Source: a bacterium (lineage in GTDB: Bacteria > Patescibacteriota > Microgenomatia > UBA1400 > PJMF01). From it: a stretch of DNA of 64,000 bases. The stretch spans positions 77,324-141,323 of the forward strand of contig JAFRKQ010000021.1 in assembly GCA_017431625.1 (NCBI GenBank). The letters are read 5' to 3'. Below, piece after piece: positions 4,035 through 57,346 of the stretch; position 1 is the stretch's first letter; the number at the start of each line of letters is the position of its first letter. The notes under the pieces are model-generated. The model saw only the letters and a program-made list of their open reading frames with translations, did no database searches and was not told the DNA's origin. The position numbers and the translations under genes were made by a program.

Positions 4035-4040
4035 GCGCGC

Positions 4041-4066
4041 ATTATACCATAATTTTGTGGTATAAT
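4041..4066. promoter_or_regulatory. Palindromic bidirectional promoter: ATTATACCA-N8-TGGTATAAT gives an extended -10 on each strand for leaderless dnaX (-) and fpg (+)
   Basis: TGGTATAAT at 4058-4066 on + with fpg ATG 6 nt downstream. Its reverse complement at 4041-4050 on - with dnaX ATG 6 nt downstream. Confidence 0.6.
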
Positions 4067-4072
4067 CAAGGC

Positions 4073-4933
4073 ATGCCAGAGTTGCCAGAAGTTGAAACCG
4101 TTGCCCGAAGTCTAAGACCATTCTTACTGGGACAAACAATCACCCGCATTGAGATTTTTAAAGACAAAAGTTTTCCCGATGTAGCCCAGCAAAAACATGT
4201 TTTGGGCGTGAAAATTGTCGCTATCAAACGTCGAGCTAAGCTTATCATCATCGATTTTGCCAATAATTATCATTTGGTCACCCACCTGAAAATGACCGGC
4301 CAGCTTTTGTATCGTCACCAAGGCCACAATCAAGCTGGCGGTGGCCACCCCACAGCTGATATTTTTGCCGACTTACCAAGTAAACACACCCGTGTAGCCT
4401 ATACCCTTAGCAATCAGGATCACTTATTTTTTAATGATCTGCGTATTTTTGGCTGGCAAAAGATTTTCACCACTTCCCAGTTGCAAAGTGAACTGGCCAA
4501 ATATGGTCCCGATGCCAACGCCTTGAATTCCCACGACATCCATGCTCTTGAGATCAGCTGGGCTCGCTGTCGCCGGCCAATCAAACAGGTCTTGATGGAT
4601 AATAAATATTTAAGCGGTCTGGGCAATATTTATGCCGCCGAAGTTTGTTATCGCACTCGCTTGGATCCGCGCACACCAACCATGAAAGTCACCCCTGGTC
4701 AAATTGAGGCCCTCGCACAACAAGCTCATGATTTACTGACAGAAGCCATCAAATATGGCGGGACGACTTTTGATGGTCGCTATGTTGATGCCAATGGTCA
4801 GGGTGGTAACTTTGAAAGCCATTTGGATGTTTACGGTCGTGCCAATCAGCCATGTCATCGATGTGGTCATTTGCTCGAAACTCTCAAAATTGGCGGACGT
4901 AGCACAGTATTTTGCCCGGAGTGTCAACGATGA
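4073..4933 (+). CDS. mutM: Formamidopyrimidine-DNA glycosylase (Fpg/MutM)
   Basis: N-terminal MPELPEVE catalytic motif and C-terminal zinc finger CHRCG…CPECQ. Start corrected to MPELPEV. Confidence 0.9.
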   Translation: MPELPEVETVARSLRPFLLGQTITRIEIFKDKSFPDVAQQKHVLGVKIVAIKRRAKLIIIDFANNYHLVTHLKMTGQLLYRHQGHNQAGGGHPTADIFADLPSKHTRVAYTLSNQDHLFFNDLRIFGWQKIFTTSQLQSELAKYGPDANALNSHDIHALEISWARCRRPIKQVLMDNKYLSGLGNIYAAEVCYRTRLDPRTPTMKVTPGQIEALAQQAHDLLTEAIKYGGTTFDGRYVDANGQGGNFESHLDVYGRANQPCHRCGHLLETLKIGGRSTVFCPECQR

Positions 4934-27321: not shown

Positions 27322-28518
27322 CTAGCAGCGTTGGTGTTTGGTTTGGCGCCACACGAGGTAGATATTGACTATCACCAACAGGCACTCACCGCCGATCATC
27401 GCCCAAACACTGCCATACATACCCAAACTTGGTACTAGCCACCAATTAAGACCAAGATTGGCTAGAGTGGAACCAAGTAAAAAAGGTACATAGCAAGCAA
27501 CTCGATCACCGCTTTGCAAAACAGTGTTTAAAGGAGCATTGAAAAAAAACAAAACCACCACCACGGCCAGCAAACGCAGTATCCCGGCCGCTGGAGCATA
27601 ATCAGCTCCCAGTAAAGTCACTGTCAAAAACTGACTCAGCGTCACCATCGCGACCGCCACCGCTAGACCAGCAGCAGTCATCACTACCACCATCTTGACA
27701 ATTTGCCTCCGGCTCAAACCACCCTTTTTAGCCGCTAGAGGGAAAAGGTTGTGAAAAAGCGCTTGGGGCAAGAGATTGAAAGCATCCAAATAACGATAAG
27801 CCGCCCCATAAAGCCCCAGGGCATAAGTATCCAAAAATGAATTAATAATCAACTGGTCAGCTCGCGAATAGATCACGCCCAGCGAATCAATCGCTGCATA
27901 TGGCCAAGTTGACCAAATATTGGGCCAGTGCTGACAACCCCGGCACCAACTCGTCCACACTGCTCGCCACGGAAAATAAAAAATTATAATTAATGTCCAA
28001 GTCAGCAAGTAACTTTGATAAAAATAATTAATGTCAGCGGGCGTCCTAATCAACCACAAACTTGCAAAAAACAAAAGATTACGGACGATTAATTTATAAC
28101 CCAAATACAAACTCTGCCCGCAAGCCAAATAATAACTATCAGCCACCGTGATCAGACTTTCAAAAAATAAACTCACCCAAAAATAACTGCTCACACCAGC
28201 AGGCAAGGGCGACCACCACCATTGAATCACCATCATCACCAGAATGCTAATAACCGCCAAACTCAAACGCCAAGCTAAAAGTTGGCCCAAAAGTGCCGGT
28301 TGTTTTGAACTCGCCGATTGTTTGAGATACCAATTTTTCAGCCCCACATCAAAAATAGTCGTCACCAATTGCACCAAAGTGGTAAAAAGCATCACCTCAC
28401 CGAAGCGATCAGGCAAAAGCACGCGCGCGAGAATCATGAAATACACCGCCGACAAGAGTTTACCCCCCACCAAAGTCGTAAAATAAATCAATGATTGTTG
28501 TAAAAGTTTACGCAACAT
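27322..28518 (-). CDS. Polysaccharide/oligosaccharide flippase-family (Wzx/MOP-like) membrane protein
   Basis: Polytopic, Wzx-like N-terminus MLRKLLQQSLIYFTTLVGGKLLSAVYFMILARVL. Trp-rich loops. Confidence 0.5.
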   Translation of the reverse strand: MLRKLLQQSLIYFTTLVGGKLLSAVYFMILARVLLPDRFGEVMLFTTLVQLVTTIFDVGLKNWYLKQSASSKQPALLGQLLAWRLSLAVISILVMMVIQWWWSPLPAGVSSYFWVSLFFESLITVADSYYLACGQSLYLGYKLIVRNLLFFASLWLIRTPADINYFYQSYLLTWTLIIIFYFPWRAVWTSWCRGCQHWPNIWSTWPYAAIDSLGVIYSRADQLIINSFLDTYALGLYGAAYRYLDAFNLLPQALFHNLFPLAAKKGGLSRRQIVKMVVVMTAAGLAVAVAMVTLSQFLTVTLLGADYAPAAGILRLLAVVVVLFFFNAPLNTVLQSGDRVACYVPFLLGSTLANLGLNWWLVPSLGMYGSVWAMIGGECLLVIVNIYLVWRQTKHQRC

Positions 28519-29782
28519 ACCGCCCTTGTGAGAGATTTGTCAATCCCAAAACTACCAACAAGACACTCACCACCACGATATTGACCAGCATCACCGCCAA
28601 AGCTGATGTGTGCCAACAAGCAATCCCGACAATTTGAATCACCGGCGCCAGCAAACCAATGAACAAACCCGCACGTTCGCGAGCTAAAAAATTTTGCAAA
28701 GTGAGCATACACAGGCAATAAAGACCACCAAAAATCGCTGCCAACCACAAAATGGGTGCTAAAGCCAAATATTCTTGAGTACCAACATAGACAATTAAAA
28801 ACTCTGGAATGAGACGATAAATCAGACTCATGCCGGCAGTAAATAAAACTATTAATCCCACCGACAACCAATAAATACGTCGCTTCAAAGTCACTGACTC
28901 ATGTGAATTAAAAAACGTAAACGCTACATTAATTAAAGGCTGACTGGCATACACAATGACTTTTGCCAACAGTGAATACAAACCATACTGCCCGGCCAAT
29001 AATGCCGGACACAACATCTTGACTGTGATGACATCGACATTGAGTAAGGCAGTGGTGACCGTGACGGCTGTCAATGTCAGCCACCAATCACGAGCAGTGG
29101 CCAATTGTGACCATAAGTAGGGGAGAGCCCGATTGTTACTCGTCAATGTTTGTCCGCGACGGCACAAACCCCACACATGCAAACCAGTTTGCAACCACAT
29201 AGTCACCCCCAAACTCACATACAAACTCGCCAAACTAGCAGCAAAATGCAAGGCCAGAGCACCACCAAGCAAACGAAACAACATCGACACCACCGACACC
29301 AGTGATAACACCCCAAACCATTGCAAACCGGTAATCTGAGCTGATAAAAACGTGGTCACGCAATTGGCTACCAACAACACTAAAACCAAAATAACTGAGG
29401 TGGGATACAAAAAATTGGCGTGCTGACACAACCACCACACAATGGCCAACAATCCCAGTACTACCAACCACCACCAAGATCTCAAGGTGGCCAAAATGCG
29501 ACTATTGAGACGACACAAATAATCCCGCCGCCCTGACTCAGGACGAGCACTGATTTTTTTAGTGATCAAAAGTGCCACCACTGTCAGCGGCAAACTCAAA
29601 AGAGTAACATAAGACATCACTGATGAGTATTCGCCATAATCGGCTTGAGTCACATTTTGGACTACCAAAAAATTAAACAAAAAAGCCAAAAAACTCGCGA
29701 CTGCATTCCCGATCAAATTAAGCGCACTTTGCCAATAAAAACGCTGGAACTGAGTTGACTGTTTTGCTCTCACAAGACTCAT
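28508..29782 (-). CDS. Polysaccharide flippase-family (Wzx/MOP-like) membrane protein
   Basis: About 12 TM, N-terminus …NLIGNAVASFLAFLFNFLVVQNVTQADYGEY typical of Wzx. Confidence 0.55.
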   Translation of the reverse strand: MSLVRAKQSTQFQRFYWQSALNLIGNAVASFLAFLFNFLVVQNVTQADYGEYSSVMSYVTLLSLPLTVVALLITKKISARPESGRRDYLCRLNSRILATLRSWWWLVVLGLLAIVWWLCQHANFLYPTSVILVLVLLVANCVTTFLSAQITGLQWFGVLSLVSVVSMLFRLLGGALALHFAASLASLYVSLGVTMWLQTGLHVWGLCRRGQTLTSNNRALPYLWSQLATARDWWLTLTAVTVTTALLNVDVITVKMLCPALLAGQYGLYSLLAKVIVYASQPLINVAFTFFNSHESVTLKRRIYWLSVGLIVLFTAGMSLIYRLIPEFLIVYVGTQEYLALAPILWLAAIFGGLYCLCMLTLQNFLARERAGLFIGLLAPVIQIVGIACWHTSALAVMLVNIVVVSVLLVVLGLTNLSQGRYVA

Positions 29783-29794
29783 TATACCACCAAC

Positions 29795-30709
29795 CTATTT
29801 TCCCCACAAATCCAGCGGATAAACCCCTTGTTTGATCAAAGAAGCTATCGCCTCCACCGTGGTGCGTTTGTCCTGTGCATAAGTGACGCCAAACCAATGA
29901 CTCTGCGTGGGCAAAACTTGCATTTGAGCGATTTGGTCTTGAATTAAATGATTCACCACATTGGGCGTAAAAAACTCAAGTTTGTCGTCGTGGCCATGAG
30001 CTTGAATAAATGTACACAAATCTTGCTCTAAATAGTCAAAAAAATCTGGTGTAAAGGCAAAAAGCACCATGGATACTAAACGATTTTTATCAATTAAGTG
30101 ATCAATATTTTGCTTGTCACGACTCACAATTTGCCCCTCAACCCAGCCAATTTTGGTGTGTTCATGGATAGAAGTCAGCCGCATATTGCCATCGGCCATC
30201 AAAAGCCCCCGCGACACCCAACCATTGGGCGACAAAGTGTGAGCCAACTTATAACCTACCACGGCATAATGAGCACGCGAGTCCACCGGCAGACTTTCCA
30301 ACCACTTGGCAGTATCCTTCAAAGCCTCACGACCATAAAAGTCATCCGCACTAATGACTGCAAAAGGCTCGTGGATCAAATCACGAGCCACCCAGACTGC
30401 ATGACCCGTACCCCACGGCTTAGTGCGTGTAGTCTGCAACTGACAGCCAACCGGCAAATCATTCATTTCTTGATTGACAAATTTGATCTCTATATCAGGA
30501 GAAAACTTGTCACCATTAAAATGGCGACAAAATTCAGTGGCAAAATCTGACCGGATCACAAAGACAATCTTGTTAAAACCAGCTTGAATAGCATCATAAA
30601 CTGAATAGTCGATTAAATATTCGCCATTGGGACCAACGCTATCAATTTGCTTGAGTCCGCCATAGCGCGACCCCATACCCGCCGCCATAATCAGAAGTGT
30701 TTTTCTCAT
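29795..30709 (-). CDS. Sugar-phosphate nucleotidyltransferase (NTP_transferase fold)
   Basis: N-terminal MAAGMGSRYGGLKQ nucleotide-binding loop. Exact specificity not determinable. Confidence 0.55.
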   Translation of the reverse strand: MRKTLLIMAAGMGSRYGGLKQIDSVGPNGEYLIDYSVYDAIQAGFNKIVFVIRSDFATEFCRHFNGDKFSPDIEIKFVNQEMNDLPVGCQLQTTRTKPWGTGHAVWVARDLIHEPFAVISADDFYGREALKDTAKWLESLPVDSRAHYAVVGYKLAHTLSPNGWVSRGLLMADGNMRLTSIHEHTKIGWVEGQIVSRDKQNIDHLIDKNRLVSMVLFAFTPDFFDYLEQDLCTFIQAHGHDDKLEFFTPNVVNHLIQDQIAQMQVLPTQSHWFGVTYAQDKRTTVEAIASLIKQGVYPLDLWGK

Positions 30710-31073
30710 ACGCTATATTGTACCATAAACCCATCGTTTTGTATCAAGTAAATGTGAAAGCCAACGGCCTTGTTTTTTTAAAACGCTTATGTTATAATGA
30801 CTATTATGGCAAAAAGCAAAACCACCTCCAAAAAGAAAACTACCCTTGGGACGAAAAAACCGCACTGCCCACTAAACAAAAAACCATTCCTGCTGGTGTG
30901 CTGGTAGTGGTCAGTATTGGCATTATAGTTGTTATTGTGTGGCTTTTGGGCACTTACACTCGCGATTATCTCGATCATGACGCTCAAGTACGTGAGCGCA
31001 AGGCTGCTCTCGAACGAGCTCGTTATTAAATTTGCTCACCGATTTCATCATTAATTGCGGTATAATACCCACT

Positions 31074-31967
31074 ATGCTGCAGTTAAAATCTGGTTTACCG
31101 GTTGTTGACCCAGTGTTCCCTTCGGGGAGTGTAAATATTTGTTTTGCCACTGACCAAAATTACTTACCTTTTTTGGCAGTCACTATTCTCTCACTGCGCG
31201 ATCATGCCGATCCTCACTGCAACTATGATATTTGCATTCTCAATGATGGTCAATTGGACACTAGTCGTTTCCCCTTTGACAAATTGCAAACCGATCACTT
31301 CAAAATTCGCTTCCTCACTATGGACTTAAAAAAATACCCTTATGACTTTAGCACTCACTTGAGTGGCTATTATACCATCGCTACTTATTATCGTTTTTTT
31401 ATTGGTGAAATTTTCCGTCGTTTTGATAAAATTCTTTATCTTGATACCGACATGATTGCTATGAGCGATCCCCAGGAGCTTTTCGCCCTCCCGCTTGACG
31501 ATAAAATTTTTGCTGGTGGTACTGATCGGTGTCATTTTTTACCTATCGAAGACAATTGGCGCTCTTACGTGGCTACTACTCTTGGCATCCCCCTGGCGCA
31601 GTATTTTTGTGCTGGGATTATGCTGATGAATATTGCCAAAATGCGCGCGGCACAACTTTTGATACGCTCACTACAAAAACTTGATGAATTAGGAACACCC
31701 CAGCTAGTTGATCAAGACGTACTCAATAGTCTTTTTGCCGATAAAACGCTAGTCTTACCACCATGCTGGAATGTGATGTGGAGTGTGTTTTTGCAAGGCA
31801 GTAAGCGTGAACAAACTCTTTACAAAAAACAAGCCTTACCCGCCAAAATCATTCATTATGACTCCAAAGTCAAGCCTTGGAACACTCCTAGTGCATATTT
31901 GGCCGACCATTGGTGGTATTACGCTCGCCAGTTGGGACTCACTCCCAAAAAACTGACGTGGGATTAA
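31074..31967 (+). CDS. Family 8 glycosyltransferase (LgtC/RfaJ-like)
   Basis: NICFATDQNY…YLDTDMIA (DxD)…HYDSKVKPW. ATG 31074 lies 7 nt after -10 TATAAT 31061-31066. Track start 31032 is TTG. Confidence 0.75.
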   Translation: MLQLKSGLPVVDPVFPSGSVNICFATDQNYLPFLAVTILSLRDHADPHCNYDICILNDGQLDTSRFPFDKLQTDHFKIRFLTMDLKKYPYDFSTHLSGYYTIATYYRFFIGEIFRRFDKILYLDTDMIAMSDPQELFALPLDDKIFAGGTDRCHFLPIEDNWRSYVATTLGIPLAQYFCAGIMLMNIAKMRAAQLLIRSLQKLDELGTPQLVDQDVLNSLFADKTLVLPPCWNVMWSVFLQGSKREQTLYKKQALPAKIIHYDSKVKPWNTPSAYLADHWWYYARQLGLTPKKLTWD

Positions 31968-31975
31968 ATTGCGAG

Positions 31976-34120
31976 TCATTGATTAGGGGGCACGCTACCA
32001 GGACTCCCCATCAGCTGACGCTGACCGCGATCACCACGTCGAGCCGCGCCGCTTGCTTCCCCAGACCGATTACCACCAAAACCACCGCCGGGATTCATAC
32101 CGCCGCCGCCAAAACCGGTGTTTCCGCCCACACTGATAGCGTCTTGGGTGACAGTTTGCGTTTGCGCGCCCACGCTCACTGTATAAGTCTGACCGACTTG
32201 AAGTTCAGGATGCGAAAAAACGACACTATTACCAGTTTTTTGCACTCTGTACGAGACTAATTCTCTCTGGGAGCTATCACTAATAGTCAAAGTCTGACCA
32301 CTGGTATAATTGGTGGCAAAATTAACTTTAAATGCGGCTTGAGTTGAATTGGCCGAAAAAGTCTCCGCCATGCCCGACGAGCCTAAAGCCAAAATTGTCC
32401 CACCATGAATCACAATATCGCCGCCGCTTTCCGAACCTGAGTCCAAAGCACCATTGCCACTATTAGTGGGCCCGTCAATAATAATATCACCACCATTGAT
32501 AATTAAGTTGCCGTTGGAATCCAAACCATCGCCATCAGCGTGCACTCGTAGTATGCCACCGTCAATTTGCAACCAAGCTAAATCTTCATTACTGACAGTC
32601 ACTGTCTGTCGCCAACCAAAATCCTGGCTCTCACCGTTGCTAGCATTAAAACCATCATCTTGGGTAGTAACATCGTAGTTGCCACCAGTCACATAAATCC
32701 GCGCTCCTTCAACTCCTTCATAGCTAGCAGTCACTTGCAAATCTCCACCTTGTAAATAGACGTTATTGTCAGCATGGACGGCATCATCACCGGTAGTGAG
32801 TGTGATTTGCCCACCGGCCAGAGTGAGATCGCCATCACTATGCAGAGCGTCATCGCGACAATCCAGCACCAGTGTTCCCGCCATAATGGCCATGCTGCTC
32901 CCAGCCTTCAGACATTTGGCTGACGCCTCGCCATCTTCATCGGTATAATTGACATCACGCTGCCTAGTGGCCAAATCTGGCGGCTCAAAACGGGTCTCAT
33001 TAGACAAATTTTGATCAAAATCACTAAAATTTGGCTGTAAATCAATATTTTCCATTGGTGATAAATTACCCCATTCTGGTGGCATCGGCGGTCTGTCGCC
33101 ACTACTAGCCAGCATAGCAGTAAAATTTTCCCAGTTGTCATCTTCTGATGGGGGACTCGCAAAAGCGCGCGCTTGCTTGTCATCGCCAGTGTCAGTAGTC
33201 GCTTCCGGTCTCATCGCCCCCGGGCCAGTTTCTTGATGAGAACTAGCGGCCGCACTGCCACCACCAGTCATGATGGTAAAATGACCACCATTAAGCGTTA
33301 GATCGGTTTCGGCTTGTAAACCATCACCATCAACGTCAAGAGTAAACTGACCATCATTGATGACAATATAACCTTTGTCAGCTTTGGCGATATTATTAGC
33401 TTTAATACCCTCGCCACCACGCAAATCAAATTCACCAGTAGCGATCCGCACCGAGTCTTTGCCCAAAAGAGTGGTGCGAGTGGCCGTGATTTGGTAGTGA
33501 CCACCAGTAATCACCAGATCATCGCTGCTTCTAATCCCATGACCACCGGTCGCCGTCACACTTAGAGAGCCATCGCCATTAAAAGCCAAATCTGCTTTGG
33601 CGTAAATTGCCGCCGTCACGCCCGCGCTACTCGCCTCGGGACTGATTAAATTAGCCGCCACAATACTATTGTGAGTGTCGTCTGGGAGGGTCACAAAAAC
33701 CTTGTCTGCGGCTTTAATCCAGATCGGTGCCAAGGTCTCATGACGCAAATCCACATTGTTAAGTACCAATTGTACTTTGCTATCTTGGGCGTCCACGATT
33801 ACCTGCTGATTGTCCAAACTACCAGATAAAACATAGCTACCGGCGGTCACAATATGAACATCACCATTCAAAACATAAGCCCCGCCATTATGACCCAAAT
33901 TGGTCAAATCATTAAGATCGATTTTGATCGCGCTCGTCTCACTCCATGAACTATCATAATCGCGAGCCGAAAAGCTACCGCCACGATCAGCACCGCCATC
34001 AGAAATAATTTTACTCACACCCAGCCGCTCACTATTGATAAAGATCACTGTTAAAGCTACCGTCGCCGCTACAATGAGACCGCAAATCAAATCTGTATGT
34101 CGATGCAGAGACCAATTCAT
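31976..34120 (-). CDS. Large secreted/anchored protein with parallel beta-helix-like repeats and Gly-rich C-terminus
   Basis: N-terminal signal anchor, recurrent GG/DGDGL/ITGG repeat pattern, C-terminal GGNTGFGGGGMNPGGGFGG. Confidence 0.4.
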   Translation of the reverse strand: MNWSLHRHTDLICGLIVAATVALTVIFINSERLGVSKIISDGGADRGGSFSARDYDSSWSETSAIKIDLNDLTNLGHNGGAYVLNGDVHIVTAGSYVLSGSLDNQQVIVDAQDSKVQLVLNNVDLRHETLAPIWIKAADKVFVTLPDDTHNSIVAANLISPEASSAGVTAAIYAKADLAFNGDGSLSVTATGGHGIRSSDDLVITGGHYQITATRTTLLGKDSVRIATGEFDLRGGEGIKANNIAKADKGYIVINDGQFTLDVDGDGLQAETDLTLNGGHFTIMTGGGSAAASSHQETGPGAMRPEATTDTGDDKQARAFASPPSEDDNWENFTAMLASSGDRPPMPPEWGNLSPMENIDLQPNFSDFDQNLSNETRFEPPDLATRQRDVNYTDEDGEASAKCLKAGSSMAIMAGTLVLDCRDDALHSDGDLTLAGGQITLTTGDDAVHADNNVYLQGGDLQVTASYEGVEGARIYVTGGNYDVTTQDDGFNASNGESQDFGWRQTVTVSNEDLAWLQIDGGILRVHADGDGLDSNGNLIINGGDIIIDGPTNSGNGALDSGSESGGDIVIHGGTILALGSSGMAETFSANSTQAAFKVNFATNYTSGQTLTISDSSQRELVSYRVQKTGNSVVFSHPELQVGQTYTVSVGAQTQTVTQDAISVGGNTGFGGGGMNPGGGFGGNRSGEASGAARRGDRGQRQLMGSPGSVPPNQ

Positions 34121-34128
34121 GAATGCCT

Positions 34129-34797
34129 TTACATGTATTCACCATTAAAACTAACCAATACCGCGCTCGTCACGCCATCCAGCTGACTCAATTCGTTGAC
34201 AAAATCTGTCCGGCCATCATTAAGGCGCAGTTCGTAGGTAAGTTCAAACTTGCCCGCACGAGCCGTTTTACTTTTGAGATTGACCTTGCTTGCTTGGGCT
34301 CGTAAAATTTTATCTGCCATTTGCTCACTTACATCCCCATCACAAGTAATAATGGCCATAAAAGGCTTGGTCTTGGTTTGGCGATTGGCAAAAAGCATGA
34401 TCACCACTCCGATCAGCAAACTACCAAAAACTCCCAGCGGGAACATACCGGCAGCCAGCACAATGCCGACCGCAATTGACCAAAAAAGGAAAGCAATGTC
34501 CAATGGCTCTTTGATTGCTGCCCGAAAACGAACAATTGACAACGCCCCCACCATACCCAAAGAAAGAACAATATTGGAAGTCACGGCCAAAATAATAAGC
34601 GTGGTAATTAGCGATAGGGCAATCAAAGTCACCCCAAAACTGGTGGAATACATAACCCCTTGATAGGTCCGGCGGTACACCCAAAATATAAAAACACCAA
34701 TGCCGAAGGCCAAAAGCATCGCCAGTACCATATCAAACATTGATACCGCGGTGACATTTTCCAAAAAACTCGACTTAAAAATATCACTTAAACTCAT
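34129..34797 (-). CDS. DUF4956-like polytopic membrane protein
   Basis: 4-TM N-terminal half plus soluble C-terminal domain. Sits next to VTC-domain gene, a recurrent pairing. Confidence 0.5.
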   Translation of the reverse strand: MSLSDIFKSSFLENVTAVSMFDMVLAMLLAFGIGVFIFWVYRRTYQGVMYSTSFGVTLIALSLITTLIILAVTSNIVLSLGMVGALSIVRFRAAIKEPLDIAFLFWSIAVGIVLAAGMFPLGVFGSLLIGVVIMLFANRQTKTKPFMAIITCDGDVSEQMADKILRAQASKVNLKSKTARAGKFELTYELRLNDGRTDFVNELSQLDGVTSAVLVSFNGEYM

Positions 34798-34864
34798 TTT
34801 TCCTTTCTCTCTTGCATTTTTTATTCATTGTTTTCATACTATTATTACATATTGCCATCAATTC

Positions 34865-35560
34865 CTAACCAAACACCCGGCAATTGGCGTACTTAGAAAA
34901 TGGTGCTGTTCGTCGCCCCGTCAGTTGTACGACTGCCTTCACTACATCGGGCAAAAAAGTATCCCATTTCACCTCCATCACTGCTGGGTTATCAGGCACG
35001 CTGACCGTAGGTAAATCAGGACTTAAGGCCTCAGTGCTCGTCACCCCCGTACGCAAGTCATAATCCAGAGTCACCCGCACACCACCAGCAGGATAAAAAT
35101 AAGCCTCGCGTTGATAATCCACGATAGTCTTGGGACGCAAACCTTGGGTGAGCATTTTGTAGTAAAGCTCGCGCAACAAATCAAACTCACTGTCAGCCAA
35201 CCACAACCAATCGCCAGCGATTATTTTTTGTGTTTCTTTGCTGGTTAGTGGTGCCATTGTTTTATTGCCAACACTATTCCACTTGTATTTTTTCTCCAAG
35301 CGAATAAATGACAAATCGTGATTGTAATAACGAATGCGAAACTTCTCACGTTTATTAACACCATCAAGTTTTTCGCGCAAAGCTTTATTTTCTGGAGTGT
35401 CAAAATAAAGACTCCTGATAAAATAAAGTCCATCGCCATGCAAAGAGTAGGGGTCAGGAGTCAGCACCGAGCGCAATCGTGTGCGTAAAATCTGCAAATC
35501 CATTTGATTAATGGCAATTTTCCACTCGTAGCGATAATCTCGCAAACCTTCAACACTCAT
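34865..35560 (-). CDS. VTC-domain (CYTH-like / polyphosphate-polymerase-like) protein
   Basis: …DYRYEWKIAINQMDLQILRTRL…LYFIRSLYFDTPEN…KFRIRYY… resembles bacterial VTC domain proteins. Confidence 0.55.
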   Translation of the reverse strand: MSVEGLRDYRYEWKIAINQMDLQILRTRLRSVLTPDPYSLHGDGLYFIRSLYFDTPENKALREKLDGVNKREKFRIRYYNHDLSFIRLEKKYKWNSVGNKTMAPLTSKETQKIIAGDWLWLADSEFDLLRELYYKMLTQGLRPKTIVDYQREAYFYPAGGVRVTLDYDLRTGVTSTEALSPDLPTVSVPDNPAVMEVKWDTFLPDVVKAVVQLTGRRTAPFSKYANCRVFG

Positions 35561-35679
35561 GAGAAGTATTATACCACATCTAGTTTAAAAAATAGTTAAA
35601 ATCCATACTAATTACATTAACTAAAAATCATTTAAGAGTCATTGGTCACCAACCGAAACACTGCCCGCTACCAACTTAG

Positions 35680-35739
35680 TGCGGAGATCTGTGCGTAGCT
35701 CGGCACTAGAGTGCGGAGCTCGGCGCACAGCTCGGCACT
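35680..35739. repeat. Repeat element copy B (same 12-bp unit architecture as 24077-24136, direct orientation)
   Basis: Units TGCGGAGATCTG, TGCGTAGCTCGG, 8-bp spacer, TGCGGAGCTCGG, CGCACAGCTCGG, CACT. Confidence 0.8.
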
Positions 35740-35832
35740 AAAGCGCCAAGCTGTGGCGGACGGCGACTTTCTATCAATACCGAATAAGTGAATTAACTAA
35801 CAAAAAACTGACAATTATCAACAAAAAACATT

Positions 35833-36717
35833 TTATGTGGTCACAAAAGTAGGATAAATTAAACCAGTGGTAATTGCTTGTGGACGCAAGTCTTCAATTT
35901 CTGCCAAACCCACTTTACCCCAATACAAATCACGAATATCATGAGTGGGATCACGCAAATAAGCCGCCACTTGATGATAGCCTTCCCAATAAACCAAATC
36001 CTTGGTAAATCCCCCGGGCTGACTGGTATCGCGAACACCCCGCTTGACGCGCAAACTATTGGTAAAAGCGCGCGCCGGCGATAAACCTAAACGCAAATTT
36101 TGCTGGTACACCGTCTTAAAATCCGCCGTCTGTGCTAAATAAACCAAGGTATAAAGCAAAGCAGCTTGTCGCAGATCGGGATTGTTTTTATCCTTACTAT
36201 TATAAATGGCCAGACCTTCTTCTGTTTTTTTCCAGTATTTTTGACGTTGACGCATCTGTGCGTGCCACGGCTGGTGCTCATCATTGAGTCGACGCAAAAG
36301 ATGGGTTTGGATTTCGTGATTGAGGACACTGACGAATTGCTCTTGACTGACTTTGGCCGGCCACTGGACGCTGAGAGTCAGATCATCGCGCATCATAAAG
36401 CGACTATTTTGCTGGCGACTTTTGACTAAAGTAATGGGTGCCATGCCCAAGCGCACGCACAAATCTCGCAATAAAACTTCCAGCTCAATAAAACTCAAGG
36501 GGTGATCAATCACACTCGTCGCTTTGAGAGAGTGTTGATGCAAATAAGCTTGTGAGTGCTCATACTCCAAGCGGCTAGGAAGGCCATATTTGGTCAAAAC
36601 AGCCAGTGAATAATCTCGAGCATAAACAAACTGAGGATTGTAATCACCCCCACGCTCCCAAAATATTTGCTTTTGTTCGTCTAAATTTAATGGTACCAAA
36701 TTACTAATCAAACTCAC
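35833..36717 (-). CDS. DUF1704-like protein (QEGLA-motif Tyr/Phe carboxypeptidase-like family)
   Basis: …NHEIQTHLLRRLN… and …KKTEEGLAIYNS… (EEGLA variant of the QEGLA motif). Confidence 0.45.
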   Translation of the reverse strand: MSLISNLVPLNLDEQKQIFWERGGDYNPQFVYARDYSLAVLTKYGLPSRLEYEHSQAYLHQHSLKATSVIDHPLSFIELEVLLRDLCVRLGMAPITLVKSRQQNSRFMMRDDLTLSVQWPAKVSQEQFVSVLNHEIQTHLLRRLNDEHQPWHAQMRQRQKYWKKTEEGLAIYNSKDKNNPDLRQAALLYTLVYLAQTADFKTVYQQNLRLGLSPARAFTNSLRVKRGVRDTSQPGGFTKDLVYWEGYHQVAAYLRDPTHDIRDLYWGKVGLAEIEDLRPQAITTGLIYPTFVTT

Positions 36718-50907: not shown

Positions 50908-52020
50908 ATGGCGGCAACCAAAATTGATCTCGAGCAGATAAACATGGCCTCACTATTATCTGATGAGGCTAACAATGGTTTGTCTCTTGGCCAAGACGGT
51001 GGTTTATTTGCCGCAGCAAATCAATCTTCACTGCAGATTGAGGCAGGAAGCAATATTTCACTGTCTACAAACCAAAATACAGGTACTACCATCATTACTG
51101 CTACTGACACTATTTATGACGATTCAGCCCTTGTTTCTCGAGTAACTAGCATTGAGAGCACCAATACTTCTCAAGCTACAGCAATATCCGAACTGCAAAC
51201 GACAATTACTGGTTTGACGGGAGCGATGGTGTATCTTGGTGATATTAATGAGTCAACGGCCGATGTCACCCAAGTGAAACTAAACAACCGCATGGTGGCG
51301 CTTGGTAAAAACAGCGCACTACAAGGCTACACGATTGTCGATAGCGATGGCAATGATTGGGTGTATGACGCGACCTCGAGTCAATGGCGTAATATTGGTT
51401 ATCAGGCGATTCCGGTGGCTTCAACAACAACTCCGGGTATTGTCCAGCTTAATGATAGCATCAGCTCAACATCAACATCACAAGCAGCTACTGCTAATGC
51501 CGTCAAAACAGCGTATGATCTCGCTGCCTCTAAAGGTACTGGAACTATCACTCAAGTCAAAGCTAATGGTACAAGTGTGGCCACTTCTGGCGTCGCCAAT
51601 ATTCCGGCCGCAAGTACAAGTGCTTACGGTGTTACTAAGCTTTCAAGTTCAACATCGTCGACAAGTACAGCTCTTGCGGCTACAGCTAGCGCGGTTAAGG
51701 CAGCGTACGATCGTGGATCAACTGGCGTTACTAATGCGGCGACAGCGCAAAGTACGGCAGTGGCTGCCGCTAAGACATTTGACAATATGATTTGGAACGA
51801 AACACCGTCGGGCACTAAAAATGGCACCAATAAGACCTTTACGATTGCTAATACGCCAGTCGCAACAGACAAAATACATTTCAAAATGAATGGCGTCGAA
51901 CTGACACAAGGGTCAAGCGCAGACTACACAGTCAGCTCGACCACACTAACTATTACTGCTAACTATCATGCACCAGAAAGCACCGACACGCTGACGGTAA
52001 GCTACGAGAAAGCGAGCTAA
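50908..52020 (+). CDS. Tail fibre protein with phage-tail-fibre repeat motifs
   Basis: Repeated …SSTSTSQAATANAVKTAYD… / …SSTSTALAATASAVKAAYD… units. Confidence 0.6.
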   Translation: MAATKIDLEQINMASLLSDEANNGLSLGQDGGLFAAANQSSLQIEAGSNISLSTNQNTGTTIITATDTIYDDSALVSRVTSIESTNTSQATAISELQTTITGLTGAMVYLGDINESTADVTQVKLNNRMVALGKNSALQGYTIVDSDGNDWVYDATSSQWRNIGYQAIPVASTTTPGIVQLNDSISSTSTSQAATANAVKTAYDLAASKGTGTITQVKANGTSVATSGVANIPAASTSAYGVTKLSSSTSSTSTALAATASAVKAAYDRGSTGVTNAATAQSTAVAAAKTFDNMIWNETPSGTKNGTNKTFTIANTPVATDKIHFKMNGVELTQGSSADYTVSSTTLTITANYHAPESTDTLTVSYEKAS

Positions 52021-52022
52021 TA

Positions 52023-52406
52023 ATGTCATTAATTAAAATTGAGCAAATCAACAATTTATCTCAAGCACTTCAATTATATTCTAAAACCGTGAGTGGACTG
52101 GGGCATTTTTATCGTGTCGGGAAAATTGTCTATTTTGTAGCGGAACCGAATTTGAAACGCGAATCTACTATAAACGCGTGGCAAGTGTTACAAATCGGCA
52201 CAATTCCCAGCGGTTACAAACCTAATTTTCCTGACGGCCAAAGTGATTTCATGGTGCCAGTCCAGAATGGCCCAATTATTGGCTTCATGATGCGTGTTTA
52301 CAACACAGCAATTGATTGGTGTAATTTGTCTGGTTCGGCAATCACCGTTCCGACGACACCGGTTTTTACGCTGACGTGGTGGACAAACGATGACTATCCA
52401 AGCTAA
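52023..52406 (+). CDS. Small tail-fibre-associated protein (paralogue A; N-terminus MSLIKIEQINN)
   Basis: N-terminus paralogous to the interrupted gene downstream. Confidence 0.45.
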   Translation: MSLIKIEQINNLSQALQLYSKTVSGLGHFYRVGKIVYFVAEPNLKRESTINAWQVLQIGTIPSGYKPNFPDGQSDFMVPVQNGPIIGFMMRVYNTAIDWCNLSGSAITVPTTPVFTLTWWTNDDYPS

Positions 52407-52417
52407 GAAAGGACTAT

Positions 52418-52812
52418 ATGAGTTTAATAAGACTTGATCAAATCAAGAATCCGTTGGGGGGGGCGGCCTCTCAGTAGATACCGTGCCAACTGGTGGAAGC
52501 AATAATTTGGCAACAAGTAGTGCAGTAGCTAATTTAATTAAAATTGTGTCTTACAACCAAAGCGTATCACTGACAAACACACAAGGAGATAATAGAGTTG
52601 AATGGTCTGGACTCGCAGTTGATGGTTATACACCTACCCGGATATTTTCTTTTATACACGGGTATGCTGGTTCTGTACAATGCGATTGTGAAGCATATGA
52701 CCTCATTGACAACACCATACATTTTGTGGGCTACGCCCGCAATCTTGATACTCCGTCACAACTAAGAACTGTCAACTTCACCTTAATAACACTCTGGATT
52801 AAAGTGAGTTAA
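52418..52812 (+). pseudogene. Paralogue B (MSLIRLDQIKN…) interrupted at a G8 homopolymer; +1 G would fuse to the 52483 reading frame
   Basis: ATG 52418 reaches TAG at 52475-52477 just after G8 (52456-52463). Frame +1 is open from 52432 to 52812 (…LSVDTVPTGGSNNLATSSAVANLIK…). Confidence 0.55.
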
Positions 52813-53031
52813 GCAGTTCGTTTAAGTAGTTGGTCCACTCATCCAATTAGGAGAGCTATCAATAGTGTTATAATAGGTATACAACAGTCAGACTTCGACA
52901 TAACAACGAATTTCTTATCTGGTCTTGCCGCAATTGTGTCATATCGTGATTATACCACATTATATCACAAAAAACATATAACCACACATAAAACGCGGTT
53001 ATCATCAATAATAGCAACACAGAAAGGCATA

Positions 53032-53217
53032 ATGGCACTTTACACAATCCGTTCCGGCGTCAACAACCACCCAGAAAGAACAGTCTTACAGTTTACCAGC
53101 GACATGGTGCGGCGAGGCGGGGTAATTTCTGGTTTTGTCACCAGTGAAAAAGCTGGCGGCGTGGGTATGAGTGTGGATGTATCCGCCGGCACCCGATTAG
53201 CAAGAGTTTTCCCCTAA
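53032..53217 (+). CDS. Small phage protein (61 aa)
   Basis: Conserved structural-gene RBS acagaaaggcataATG. Track start 52936 is an alternative codon. Confidence 0.35.
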   Translation: MALYTIRSGVNNHPERTVLQFTSDMVRRGGVISGFVTSEKAGGVGMSVDVSAGTRLARVFP

Positions 53218-53351
53218 AGACAGGTTGTATCACTTAGAAGATTCCCCCCCCCCAACGAAGCTGGGATTTGCTTTTGTTTAATAAGTGACATTTCTGAAAG
53301 AAATTTTAGTTAATCGCAAGAAAATGTCAATATAACAATGTATATAAAACG

Positions 53352-53380
53352 TTGACAAAAACGTAGGTGAGTGGTAAAAT
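53352..53380 (+). promoter_or_regulatory. Sigma70-like promoter TTGACA-17-TAAAAT upstream of Panacea-domain gene
   Basis: -35 at 53352-53357, -10 at 53375-53380. Confidence 0.5.
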
Positions 53381-53449
53381 ACCAGTTCCTCATATTGCTA
53401 AAGTGTGTCCAGTGTGAGATAATGATAAACACATAGGTAGAAAGTTGAA

Positions 53450-53908
53450 GTGCAAGCGATAAATATAGCAAACTATTTGATATTGTTAGCAACAAATATT
53501 GGAGAAAGTATCACAAATATGAAACTCCAAAAGCTGCTTTATTATTCGTATGCTTGGTACCTAGTTGATACAAGAAATGAACGAAGATTGTTTAATGATG
53601 ATATCGAGGCCTGGAAATATGGACCGGTGGTGAGATCTGTGTATGATGTATTCAAGAATCGCGGTGCCGATTCAATTAAACATCCATATGTTTTGGGCAC
53701 GCACGATGAAAATTATGGTCTTGACTTGGCTCAACAGGAGGTAGTTGAAGATGTATATAAAAGCTATGGAATGAAAAACGCAATTGAGCTGATGGAGATG
53801 ACGCACAATGAAGAGCCGTGGATTAAGACGTATCAAGAGGGCAAAAACAACGTGATTGATCCACAGATAATCTATCAGTTCTACTCCCAGCTTAGTCAGA
53901 GTGTTTAA
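53450..53908 (+). CDS. Panacea-domain (DUF4065, SocA-like antitoxin family) protein
   Basis: …IANYLILLATNIGESITNMKLQKLLYYSYAWYLVDTRNERRLFNDDIEAWKYGPVVRSVYDVFK… matches the DUF4065/Panacea core. GTG start. Confidence 0.65.
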   Translation: MQAINIANYLILLATNIGESITNMKLQKLLYYSYAWYLVDTRNERRLFNDDIEAWKYGPVVRSVYDVFKNRGADSIKHPYVLGTHDENYGLDLAQQEVVEDVYKSYGMKNAIELMEMTHNEEPWIKTYQEGKNNVIDPQIIYQFYSQLSQSV

Positions 53909-53914
53909 TGGGCT

Positions 53915-54370
53915 ATGTCATCTGATCGAATTAAAAGATATCTTGATAGCGTTGCTAAACAGCAGACTGCGGTTAAAGTTCGGCACAAGTTTGCGTTAGC
54001 ATGTAACATGAGTTTTTCTTTTGCCAATCTTAATGTTGCTTATGAAGGCTTTGATTTACGTCATGATCAAGATAAATGTCCAGATCAAGAAGTAAAAATC
54101 GATAGATTAGTTAATGCGTTTGAGCTTTTATCGCAAAGATCTATTGGATTAATCGCCAAAGGAGAGAATCATTGTCATCCGATTGAGCGTGAGAAACTCG
54201 TTGGATGTGGAATGAAGTCATTAGTTGATTTTTACCCAAATGAAACGTTTTATCAACTCGGATCAAATTATTATGCGAGACCTGAAAGAATAATTGGGTA
54301 TTACGATCGAAAAACTAATATCTTTCAAGTCTGTATTATCGATCTCCATCATCAAGTTTATCCTAAATAA
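53915..54370 (+). CDS. Unknown 151-aa protein immediately downstream of Panacea gene (candidate toxin/effector partner)
   Basis: 7-bp spacing, same strand, no recognisable domain. Cys/His-containing (…GENHCHPIEREK…IIDLHHQVYPK). Confidence 0.4.
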   Translation: MSSDRIKRYLDSVAKQQTAVKVRHKFALACNMSFSFANLNVAYEGFDLRHDQDKCPDQEVKIDRLVNAFELLSQRSIGLIAKGENHCHPIEREKLVGCGMKSLVDFYPNETFYQLGSNYYARPERIIGYYDRKTNIFQVCIIDLHHQVYPK

Positions 54371-54395
54371 CAATGTTTATTGGTTTGTGCTTTTG

Positions 54396-54466
54396 TTGTG
54401 AAGCCCGGACTCGAACCAAGATTTGCGGGGCCAAAACCCGCTGTGCTGCCATTGCACTACTCCACA
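54396..54466 (-). tRNA. tRNA-Gln (anticodon TTG)
   Basis: Manual fold: acceptor TGTGGAG/CTTCACA, D GTGC-AATGGCA-GCAC, anticodon stem GCGGG/CCCGC with loop TTTTGGC, T-arm CTTGG-TTCGAGT-CCGGG. Confidence 0.8.
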
Positions 54467-54468
54467 AT

Positions 54469-54542
54469 TGGCAGATGTCCCAGGATTTGAACCCAGATTA
54501 CTGGTTTTGGAGACCAGTGTGCTGCCGTTGCACTAGACATCT
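54469..54542 (-). tRNA. tRNA-Trp (anticodon CCA), CCA encoded
   Basis: Acceptor AGATGTC/GACATCT, D GTGC-AACGGCA-GCAC, anticodon stem CTGGT/ACCAG with loop CTCCAAA, T-loop TTCAAAT. 2-nt spacer from tRNA-Gln. Confidence 0.8.
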
Positions 54543-54565
54543 ATTATTGTATCATCATTTCGATG

Positions 54566-54637
54566 TTGCGGAGGCTGGACTTGAACCAGCGTTTTGCCCT
54601 TATGAGAGGCCTGCGATACCGCCTCGCTCACTCCGCA
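54566..54637 (-). tRNA. tRNA with CAT anticodon (elongator Met or Ile-lysidine type; not initiator-like)
   Basis: Acceptor TGCGGAG/CTCCGCA, anticodon loop CTCATAA, T-arm GCTGG-TTCAAGT-CCAGC. D-arm one nt short. Lacks the 3 GC pairs of initiator. Confidence 0.65.
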
Positions 54638-54670
54638 AACGTTTATTATATCATTACTTCACAATAATCA

Positions 54671-55117
54671 TTATTCCTTTTGGCTCTGTTTACCGTTGAC
54701 CTGAGCCAGCTTTTGAGTAATAATCTCGGGGATCGGTACACCCCACTCGGTTAAGTTTTCAGTAATACTGACTAAATCATTAACCAAAAACATCCCCAGG
54801 AAAATGTCGCGCATGGGCGTTTGCCATTCATTAAAAACAGGCACGACCCCACTAAACTCAGGAATCAGGGTGTCGACCCGGTAGACGATTGTGATCATCA
54901 AAAGCGTTCCCACCTTTTTCCACAATCCAGAGCGCATTTTGCTGCTGGAAAAATCATTATTGCGCACGGCTGAAAGACAGCCGGTGATAACGTCTACTAG
55001 CATCAAGAAGAGTACACTGTAAAAAATAGCATTCAGCGTGCCAAAAAGCCAGGTAAGTACTGACAAAGCCACCACCTGCACTGCTCCGATAAAGTTTAAT
55101 AGCCATTTCTCTTTCAT
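54671..55117 (-). CDS. Holin (phage holin family 4_1/TcdE-like)
   Basis: 3 TM. …LMLVDVITGCLSAVRNNDFSSSKMRSGLWKKVGTLLMI… Overlaps endolysin stop. Confidence 0.6.
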   Translation of the reverse strand: MKEKWLLNFIGAVQVVALSVLTWLFGTLNAIFYSVLFLMLVDVITGCLSAVRNNDFSSSKMRSGLWKKVGTLLMITIVYRVDTLIPEFSGVVPVFNEWQTPMRDIFLGMFLVNDLVSITENLTEWGVPIPEIITQKLAQVNGKQSQKE

Positions 55118-56103
55118 GATAGTAACTCCTTGAGGCGAGCTACTAATAGTTCCCAAAGCGCCCCGCCATTGGTTTTTTTGAGACTATCCACTCGCGCTTG
55201 TAGCGCGTCAATAGTTTTATTTTTTTCTTCAGTTAGTTTGACTTTTTGGTCCAGCTCTTGCTCTAGGTCTTTAATTTCTACTCCCTGCACGTCCAGTAGT
55301 TCGTGTAGTCGATCCCATTCAGCCTGAGTGTGATAAACAGTCATACCCTGCATTTGGGTTTTGAGTTGTTGCACTTGCGCCTGTAAACTGTCTATCGTTT
55401 TGTTTTTCTCGCTGATCGTCTGATCAAAGACGTCAACCTGTTTTTGTAGCTCTGCTATCTGTGTTTCCAATTTTTTGCTCTTGGCTCGCTCATCACCCAA
55501 ATGACCGTGATTAACCGTTTCTGGGTCACCATATGCGCATCTACCTTCTTTTTCGCCCAAATACTCAAAAAGAAGGGGCTTGAGCGTCTCCCAACTGTTT
55601 ACCTCAGATTTATTAAACCATGACCAATCAATCATCTTATCCTCGATTTCTGTCTTACTTCCATAATTAGTGATTCTAATATTCGCTTGATTTTTAGGCC
55701 TTAAAACGCCGTAGACGTATTTATAGGCGTAGTCTTTGAGTACACATGCACTCTCACTGGGATCGTTTTGCGAGAAGCACTGGAACTTCGAGATGGTTGC
55801 CGTGGCGTAGGATTCAATCGCCACATGGCCGTATTTGCCGTAGTTGGCTGTCCAAATCCACACATCCCCTGGTTGAGGGACAAAATCTGGTGTATTAACA
55901 ATCCGCTCAAAATTGTTATACAGATTCGGATCAGTGAGATAATTTGTCCATAAGTCTTTTGCGCCAGTCACACCTTTTGGCTGGTTGATTCCTAAAACCT
56001 CTTTGCAGTAGAAACGAAACAGATCTACACACTGTGCGCCATATGCGCCGTCATAGTCAATCTTTTTACCTTGGTATTTAGCGATAAAGTCTGTAAAGTG
56101 CAT
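55114..56103 (-). CDS. Endolysin with N-terminal CHAP domain and C-terminal coiled-coil region
   Basis: …YDGAYGAQCVDLFRFYCKEVLG… (Cys) and …YGHVAIES… (His). Confidence 0.75.
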   Translation of the reverse strand: MHFTDFIAKYQGKKIDYDGAYGAQCVDLFRFYCKEVLGINQPKGVTGAKDLWTNYLTDPNLYNNFERIVNTPDFVPQPGDVWIWTANYGKYGHVAIESYATATISKFQCFSQNDPSESACVLKDYAYKYVYGVLRPKNQANIRITNYGSKTEIEDKMIDWSWFNKSEVNSWETLKPLLFEYLGEKEGRCAYGDPETVNHGHLGDERAKSKKLETQIAELQKQVDVFDQTISEKNKTIDSLQAQVQQLKTQMQGMTVYHTQAEWDRLHELLDVQGVEIKDLEQELDQKVKLTEEKNKTIDALQARVDSLKKTNGGALWELLVARLKELLS

Positions 56104-56113
56104 GATATCCTTT

Positions 56114-57346
56114 CTAGCGATCTAAAAGTAGTAAAAGCGCTGGTCCATAACCATCACTTAAAGCCGTTTGCGTGGCCATGATGTAGCGCACGCGAATATA
56201 TGGAGGTTCCCAAGAAGTTTCACCAGCGGACATGCTCGCTGCTTGCCAAGTCATATTTACAGTGGAAATATTGGTAATGGTATGAGAGTGGTTTTGTGAG
56301 GCTTTTAGTGTACCACCATATGCTCCATGACCACCTTGATTTGTATTGGTCGTCACGCTACCGCCATGGTTATGTGATTGCGAGTGCGTATGTGAATTGC
56401 CGCTTTCATGAGTATGCTTTACTTTGCCACCCGTGCCGCTTGTTTGACTATTGCGAACATAAAAGCCACTAAGTTTTGGCGTACCATTAGTGCCATCACA
56501 TGTAATCCAGCCAGTAGGATTGCTCGAAGATGTAGTGATCGCAATATCTCCAACCGCAACATTAGTTTGACTTGCGGCCTTGTAAAGACCCAAATTGGTA
56601 TAAGTCGGTAAATTAGTTTCACTGGGACTAGTACCAGTGAAAGTATCGCCAGTCAAACTCTGACTGAAACTAAAAGTATGAGTGTGTTGGCCAATGACTG
56701 AGCCACCATCGGCTTGACGTCTATCAGTATCTGTAGACTCACCGGTAGTGCCGGAATGAGTATGAGAAACAGCGGTGTGAGTATGAGTTACAGAGTGGGA
56801 ATGAGTGTTGCTCCCGCCAGTACCCCCAGCATTGCCACCAGCAACCGCCCCTTTGAGAAAACGGTTTTGTGAGGCCGAATGAAAACTCAAGCCCGAGCGC
56901 GCACTCGAGCGATAGACCAAACTCTCGGCAGGAATTTGGCTGTCGGTATCGGCTTTGATAAATATTACTTCATAATATGGCGGCAAAGCAGTAGTGCTGG
57001 CATAATCTACTTTGTCAGATAAAGCATTACCAGAAAAACTTGCATTTGACACTTGTGCTTTGTGACGATGTCCTTCTGACACTGTAGATTTTGGATCATC
57101 ATTGCTCGAGTATCCTTGCTCACCATTGGCGGAGCTTGTATATTCATCGCTCGAATGTACATGAGAATTTGGTTGATGAGTGTGAGTGCTACCCGTGTGC
57201 GAGTGAGCGCTGCTTCCACCGGTTTGCCCAAGTGTACCTGAAATAGCCGACGGAAAACGCCCATCAAAACGAGTATCACGGCTCCAGCCAGCAGGAATAG
57301 CTGTATTATTGCCATCAAATGGTAAAATAACACCAGCAGGAATCAT
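56114..57346 (-). CDS. Tail collar/fibre-like protein with three His-rich HSHTGSTHTH-type repeats
   Basis: Gly/Ser/Thr/His-rich 410 aa. Repeats AHSHTGSTHTHQPNSHVH, NTHSHSVTHTHTAVSHTHSG, KHTHESGNSHTHSQSHNHGG. Confidence 0.45.
   Translation of the reverse strand: MIPAGVILPFDGNNTAIPAGWSRDTRFDGRFPSAISGTLGQTGGSSAHSHTGSTHTHQPNSHVHSSDEYTSSANGEQGYSSNDDPKSTVSEGHRHKAQVSNASFSGNALSDKVDYASTTALPPYYEVIFIKADTDSQIPAESLVYRSSARSGLSFHSASQNRFLKGAVAGGNAGGTGGSNTHSHSVTHTHTAVSHTHSGTTGESTDTDRRQADGGSVIGQHTHTFSFSQSLTGDTFTGTSPSETNLPTYTNLGLYKAASQTNVAVGDIAITTSSSNPTGWITCDGTNGTPKLSGFYVRNSQTSGTGGKVKHTHESGNSHTHSQSHNHGGSVTTNTNQGGHGAYGGTLKASQNHSHTITNISTVNMTWQAASMSAGETSWEPPYIRVRYIMATQTALSDGYGPALLLLLDR

Follow-up and report, generated by a model that had tools for sequence, protein, structure and literature searches.

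The two-gene locus

We have analyzed a 64,000-nucleotide stretch of DNA (contig JAFRKQ010000021.1, positions 77,324 to 141,323; hereafter the window) that is part of a large uncultured phage, and in it a pair of neighboring open reading frames (ORFs), ORF A and ORF B, that probably constitute a toxin-antitoxin (TA) module of the Panacea type (PanA-PanT). The pair and the candidate promoter that precedes it are listed below, in the window coordinates that we use throughout.

53352-53380, plus strand: candidate promoter of the sigma-70 type, shared by both genes as an operon (TTGACA, 17-nt spacer, TAAAAT, extended -10 TG)
53450-53908, plus strand: panA, coding for a standalone Panacea (DUF4065) domain protein, putative antitoxin (GTG start, 152 amino acids, aa)
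53915-54370, plus strand: panT-like gene, coding for a putative toxin with a predicted RelE/ParE-like fold plus an N-terminal extension (ATG start, 151 aa)

The product of ORF A contains the sequence KLQKLLYY...EAWKYGPV, in which the first-pass annotation of this DNA had seen a DUF4065/Panacea protein, and the profile search that it had proposed as a check bears this out. The match to the Pfam model PF13274 (SocA_Panacea) has an E-value of 3.9e-20 and a score of 73.3 bits, over the gathering cutoff of 25.7, and extends over residues 26-124 and positions 1-112 of the 113 in the profile, which places ORF A among the Panacea/DUF4065 (PanA) proteins. Pfam revealed no second domain. The protein also matched phrog_1281 (E 2e-43), and its sole match in NCBIfam was the SocA model NF047745 (E 2.9e-25), with 88.9 bits that lie far under the equivalog cutoff of 190 bits, so that ORF A does not belong to the SocA equivalog (type VI antitoxin). 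We found 154 Panacea homologs, the closest with 68% identity. The 23 residues ahead of Met24 (53450-53518) are conserved among the homologs, which indicates that the GTG start is correct; the version of this product at NCBI (129 aa, starting at Met24) is, to judge from this conservation, probably truncated at its N-terminus.

ORF B follows on the same strand after a gap of 6 nt (53909-53914). The tight linkage described in the first-pass annotation is thus real, with a gap one nucleotide shorter than the 7 bp given there. The sigma-70-like promoter that it had placed ahead of the pair was recovered in a consensus scan, as a consensus match only: 11 of the 12 consensus positions are conserved, and the site lies 70 nt 5' of the PanA start.

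Conservation and co-divergence of the pair

That the two genes belong together is indicated by how often they are found side by side. Six Panacea homologs with identities to ORF A of 68, 54, 50, 51, 47, and 46% (P0003, P0004, P0005, P0010, P0013, and P0017) each have an ORF-B homolog directly downstream. In the other direction, when metagenomes from the Joint Genome Institute (JGI) were scanned with an ORF-B motif, every match that had upstream DNA was directly preceded by a Panacea gene, with a single exception (locus L014, described below). At least 11 divergent loci have the two genes in this arrangement, and this recurrence, together with the co-divergence of the two genes, rules out a chance adjacency. 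The intergenic distances were between -8 and +7 nt at 9 of 11 loci, those with a clear downstream start. The neighbors, in contrast, differ from locus to locus and include a restriction-modification methylase, a tRNA synthetase, a phage Dit gene, a resolvase, and an RCC1-repeat protein. In addition, over the 11 loci the pairwise identities of PanA are correlated with those of PanT (r 0.75, Mantel p ~4e-4). The more distant Panacea protein of Bacillus dakarensis (34% identity) is paired instead with a 650-aa membrane protein, as expected from the partner swapping of Panacea proteins. Taken together, the changing neighbors, the short distances, the co-divergence, and the partner swap indicate that the pair is an autonomous, mobile, and co-evolving two-gene module. 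The 6-nt gap, the recurrence in at least 11 divergent loci, the unrelated flanks, and the co-divergence are those of a PanAT module in the sense of Kurata et al. (2022; PMC8832971). At the level of sequence, ORF B is a conserved and co-inherited partner of the Panacea protein, the defining signature of a PanA-PanT module.

Two of the loci deserve a separate mention. In L014 (3953-4222), on a 725-kb contig, an 89-aa fragment corresponding to the C-terminus of the ORF-B homologs is found beside ribosomal-protein-like genes and has no Panacea gene; it seems to be what is left of the module after decay. In L013 (523-1025) two overlapping fragments that lie in different frames make up the Panacea gene 5' of the ORF-B homolog, which points either to a frameshift in the antitoxin gene or to an error in sequencing.

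A rare protein family with a predicted RelE/ParE-like fold

No significant match to ORF B was found in Pfam, PHROG, or PADLOC, and to that extent the description of it as unrecognizable in the first-pass annotation stands. Six independent metagenome contigs of the phage carry the protein without any difference in sequence. When 1.84 billion cluster representatives were searched exhaustively with phmmer, 19 matches were obtained at E <= 1e-3: ORF B itself, 16 true relatives (15 of 144-167 aa and one fragment of 89 aa), and two long repetitive proteins that were discounted. With tblastn against 50,697 phage records only a chance match (E 0.6) was obtained, a word-indexed homology search with ORF B, singly and as a profile, retrieved essentially nothing but itself, and a scan of IMG/VR for relatives yielded one locus. 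A pattern scan of 185,579 GTDB species genomes with one conserved motif, F[QEN]VC[LIV][LI]D[LHM]xH, found no relatives. The search of the PDB sequences with the family profile provided nothing meaningful, its one match being an alginase at E 0.39. Over the range of these searches, the ORF-B family is rare, seen only in metagenomes, and composed of proteins of ~145-165 aa. They have in common the motifs FSF, HCH, and ER(I/V)xG(F/Y)F...N(L/I)FQVC(L/I)(L/I)DLxH, and nine residues are invariant in 31 family members (numbered as in the window protein): S76, H88, G116, R125, G128, F137, V139, D143, and H146.

The structure prediction proposed in the first-pass annotation gave a more informative result. 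From the single sequence the AlphaFold model of ORF B was unusable, with a predicted local distance difference test (pLDDT) score of 36, while the model based on a shallow alignment of 18 sequences reached a pLDDT of 83.1 and a predicted template modeling (pTM) score of 0.71. This model comprises a helix at 3-14, a poorly defined linker, a strand at 33-35, helices at 58-73 and 77-81, and a strand at 87-90, followed in the C-terminal part by two short helices within 92-106 and the strands 112-116, 125-131, and 136-143. It has the elements that characterize the RelE/ParE fold, i.e., a strand at the N-terminus, two helices, and an antiparallel sheet of three to four strands. ORF B is therefore predicted to adopt a classical toxin fold, RelE/ParE-like, with an N-terminal extension and an inserted helix pair, and the lack of a recognizable fold, the other half of that description, no longer applies. 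That ORF B is a structural phage protein, the outcome that the first-pass annotation had named as speaking against its proposal, is ruled out by the absence of a structural match in PHROG and by the toxin-like predicted fold.

Neither the window protein nor any of 20 family members was matched at E <= 1 by the RelE, ParE, HigB, and YoeB models of Pfam and NCBIfam, an hhalign comparison of the family with approximate E. coli YoeB and RelE sequences gave no signal, and Foldseek found nothing among the viral structures of BFVD. In comparison with the known RelE/ParE toxins (RelE, HigB, YoeB, YafQ, ParE, BrnT), to which no sequence similarity is detectable, ORF B is ~60 residues longer, with the N-terminal extension and the inserted helices at 92-106, and it is paired with a Panacea protein instead of RelB, HigA, YefM, or ParD.

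The invariant polar residues fall at particular places of the model. His88 is located in strand 87-90, the first of the sheet to follow the helices, Arg125 at the start of the penultimate strand (125-131), and Asp143 and His146 at the C-terminal end, at or after the strand 136-143. The catalytic residues of YoeB, YafQ, and HigB occupy similar kinds of positions. By their place in the secondary structure, H88, R125, D143, and H146 are candidate catalytic residues.

Relationship to the Panacea-associated cluster T1

The only recurrent library match of the ORF-B family was the NCBIfam model NF046006 (MAG6450_fam). ORF B scored 18.3 bits (E 0.0026) over its C-terminal 28 residues only, under the curated cutoff of 40 bits that would make it a member, and the same model was the best match, again sub-threshold, in 17 of 20 family members. 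In the literature, MAG6450 appears as a conserved hypothetical protein of Mycoplasma agalactiae and nothing further. A Panacea pair of M. agalactiae is found in toxin cluster T1 of Dataset S1 of Kurata et al. (2022; PMC8832971), a cluster that also holds many other taxa, including the Salmonella phage vB_SemP_Emek and Clostridium cadaveris. Its members are Panacea partners, and those tested were labeled “mRNase” in the supplementary information of that study. All of the 24 T1 members that we tested had MAG6450_fam as their best, sub-threshold match as well. In Emek the Panacea protein is orf149, overlapped by orf161 (161 aa), in agreement with the dataset, and we found relatives of orf161 in 80 GTDB species, with a Panacea gene directly upstream at 77 of the 80 loci.

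Direct comparison of the profiles connected the two groups. With hhalign, the ORF-B family and T1 aligned with a probability of 86% and an E-value of 5e-6 over 114 colinear columns; a second comparison with alignments built by the tool itself gave 80.3% and 1.4e-5, with the two alignments colinear over 113-114 columns. Among the features that align are the FSF motif, the invariant His, the GY hairpin, and the D...Y C-terminus. This profile-profile comparison gives moderate support for homology at the superfamily level, strengthened by the fact that the Panacea partner and the architecture are the same. In the T1 pairs (Emek orf149/orf161; C. cadaveris WP_074844973/WP_074844970), as in ours, a standalone Panacea gene lies directly upstream of a partner of ~140-160 aa, tightly linked or overlapping; the partners share a colinear basic N-terminal tail, the FSF motif, a helix, the invariant His, and a C-terminal hairpin of the type GY...F.V..D...Y, and both phage accessory slots and chromosomes are occupied. 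The differences are also considerable: the identity over the aligned profiles is ~16-17%, neither phmmer nor tblastn connects the families, and the terminal His of T1 is absent from the ORF-B family, in which alone R125 and H146 are invariant. On these comparisons, ORF B is regarded as a divergent and rare branch of the T1/MAG6450 group of Panacea-partnered proteins, and the idea in the first-pass annotation of a new kind of toxin gives way to that of a remote homolog of an already catalogued one.

The position of the Emek pair (L029, 14764-15637) can be noted here. It lies between injection-protein genes and the immI/tailspike region, a late-region accessory slot that resembles the place of the window pair between tail fiber and lysis genes.

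What is new is a rare, metagenome-only family, the fold assignment with its candidate catalytic residues, and the presence of the module in a large uncultured phage with its own replisome. The family adds a rare branch to the Panacea-associated T1/MAG6450 toxin group and provides the group with a concrete, although predicted, fold assignment (RelE/ParE-like). The current picture of the Panacea systems does not change, since Panacea proteins paired with RelE/ParE/HigB/YoeB-like toxins have already been catalogued (clusters T14, T28, and T59) and T1 pairs are already known in phages (Emek and several Pseudomonas and Escherichia phages). Such modules have been reported mostly from temperate phages. 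One beside a DnaE polymerase, a clamp loader, and tRNAs of the phage's own is a less usual setting.

Proposed mechanism and alternatives

We consider it probable that the pair is a type II-style PanA-PanT module carried by the phage, in which a predicted RelE-like ribonuclease (RNase) toxin is neutralized by the Panacea protein. This reading builds on the identity of the PanA domain, on a pair that is conserved and co-diverges, on the fold prediction, and on the remote homology to T1. The RNase activity, the toxicity, the direct neutralization, and the biological role we infer. The panA and panT-like genes would share a transcript made from the promoter-like site at 53352-53380, with their translation coupled over the 6-nt gap. 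ORF B would be the effector, with a RelE/ParE core (beta1, helical hairpin, and three- to four-stranded antiparallel sheet) behind an N-terminal extension of ~30 residues, and would act as an endoribonuclease of the RelE/HigB/YoeB style, arresting translation by means of His88, Arg125, Asp143, and His146. The standalone Panacea protein would neutralize it through direct binding. Standalone Panacea antitoxins are known to neutralize directly, in one instance by contacting the toxin at its unstructured N-terminal region and at a short helix (Ernits et al., 2023; PMC10440598), and by analogy that contact region could plausibly correspond to the N-terminal extension of ORF B. The PanATs tested by Kurata et al. 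(2022; PMC8832971) form stable type II complexes. In the phage the module might serve for superinfection exclusion or abortive infection, or for stabilization of the phage genome.

Several observations weigh against this reading. From the fold alone, toxins of the RNase type and gyrase poisons of the ParE type cannot be told apart. T1 does not conserve R125 and H146, and therefore the proposed catalytic set is not common to the superfamily. No operator-like inverted repeats were found near the promoter-like site 53352-53380, and the ORFs of the window that were scanned did not include an integrase. The experimental record of T1 points in the same direction: none of the nine validated PanATs is a T1 pair, the T1 proteins of the Salmonella phage Emek and of E. 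coli MOD1 (a prophage-flagged locus) were non-toxic in E. coli, and that of C. cadaveris was toxic and was not rescued by its own PanA (Kurata et al., 2022; PMC8832971).

The two non-toxic homologs speak for a pair that does not arrest the growth of the host at all, ORF B being a non-toxic regulator or RNA-binding factor with a RelE fold, or the Panacea protein being a sensor or an anti-defense decoy against PanT-like toxins of the host. Panacea proteins without a predicted toxin partner are indeed common (1,004 of 2,281), Panacea genes are present in 181 deposited phage genomes, and it has been proposed that Panacea is primarily a sensor (Ernits et al., 2023; PMC10440598). However, the strict co-inheritance and co-divergence of both genes across unrelated contexts tie the Panacea protein to ORF B and not to toxins of the host, the catalytic-looking residues of the ORF-B family are invariant, and one T1 member, that of C. 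cadaveris, is toxic after all. We regard this explanation as unlikely.

Slightly less probable again is a PanA-PanT pair whose toxin poisons DNA gyrase in the manner of ParE, with which ORF B would share the fold. Against it stand the invariant His, Arg, Asp, and His of the family, found at the sheet edges and the C-terminus, a pattern typical of catalytic toxins of the RelE/YoeB/YafQ/HigB type, and the “mRNase” label of the related T1 members.

The family's own His-Arg-Asp-His set and its N-terminal extension might instead mark a functionally distinct offshoot of the RelE fold and T1, used as a weapon by a probably virulent phage with its own replisome and tRNAs for a timed shut-off of host mRNA or for the exclusion of rival phages, rather than as a classical addiction module. 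We find this improbable; if true, the adjacent tRNA-Gln/Trp/Met cluster might buffer the translation of the phage itself.

A type VI arrangement like SocAB of Caulobacter crescentus, with the Panacea protein as a proteolytic adaptor handing the toxin to ClpXP and not as a binding inhibitor, is very improbable: SocA is the founding Panacea protein and carries the domain found in ORF A, whose only NCBIfam match is the SocA model, but the score falls far short of the equivalog cutoff, SocB, a protein that blocks the DnaN clamp, is not related to ORF B, and the PanAT pairs tested by Kurata et al. (2022; PMC8832971) formed stable type II complexes, as mentioned before.

Phage context and other features of the window

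The first-pass annotation had placed the pair between tail-fiber genes and a cluster of tRNA and lysis genes, and the genes that we identified at both sides agree with this:

50908-52020: tail-fiber gene (Phage_fiber_2)
54395-54637, minus strand: tRNA-Gln, tRNA-Trp, and tRNA-Met, adjoining the 3' side of the pair
54671-55156, minus strand: holin
55114-56103, minus strand: CHAP endolysin

A scan with Rfam of the region 52000-56000 gave the three tRNAs and nothing else. The GC content of the gene pair is 0.366, vs. 0.444 for the window. With this lower GC content and a promoter-like site to itself, the pair resembles an accessory cassette that the phage acquired horizontally, located between the tail-fiber genes and the tRNA/lysis cluster. 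Together with the conserved and co-inherited partner, these features uphold the view of the pair as a Panacea module in a phage accessory region.

The longest contig with ORF B is 151 kb, and megablast of the region against the 50,697 phage records gave no matches to deposited phages. The phage codes for its own DnaE-type polymerase and clamp loader. The DnaE-type Pol III alpha subunit is found at 78-4139 (phrog_405, E 2e-258) and has less than 40% identity to the phage collection; a clamp-loader subunit is encoded on the opposite strand.

Upstream of the pair, the stretch 52813-53449 (637 nt) has no convincing ORF and contains a poly-C tract at 53244-53253, ~100 nt 5' of the promoter-like site. 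It is formed by ten C in the window and by 13 in two independent contigs of this phage from metagenomes (L001, 4066-4078; L002, 555-567), and could be a length-variable homopolymer or assembly noise. Promoter-like sites are also present on the minus strand at 53330-53303 and 53358-53329, divergent to that of panA, and a terminator-like hairpin is found at 53002-52978 on the same strand. These elements (52978-53358) could define an unannotated transcript of ~300 nt, which has no match in Rfam.

On the other side, next to the endolysin, the minus strand codes for a 410-aa protein (56114-57346) with a high content of Ser, Thr, Gly, and His and repeated SHTH/HTHT-like motifs, which did not match anything in Pfam. 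Finally, a gene block on the minus strand at 27322-36717 is unusual for a phage and may be an auxiliary island for surface modification or polyphosphate. It includes the following:

27322-28518, minus strand: polysaccharide-biosynthesis (flippase-like) protein
29795-30709, minus strand: nucleotidyl transferase
34865-35560, minus strand: VTC-domain protein
35833-36717, minus strand: protein with a MATCAP-like peptidase domain
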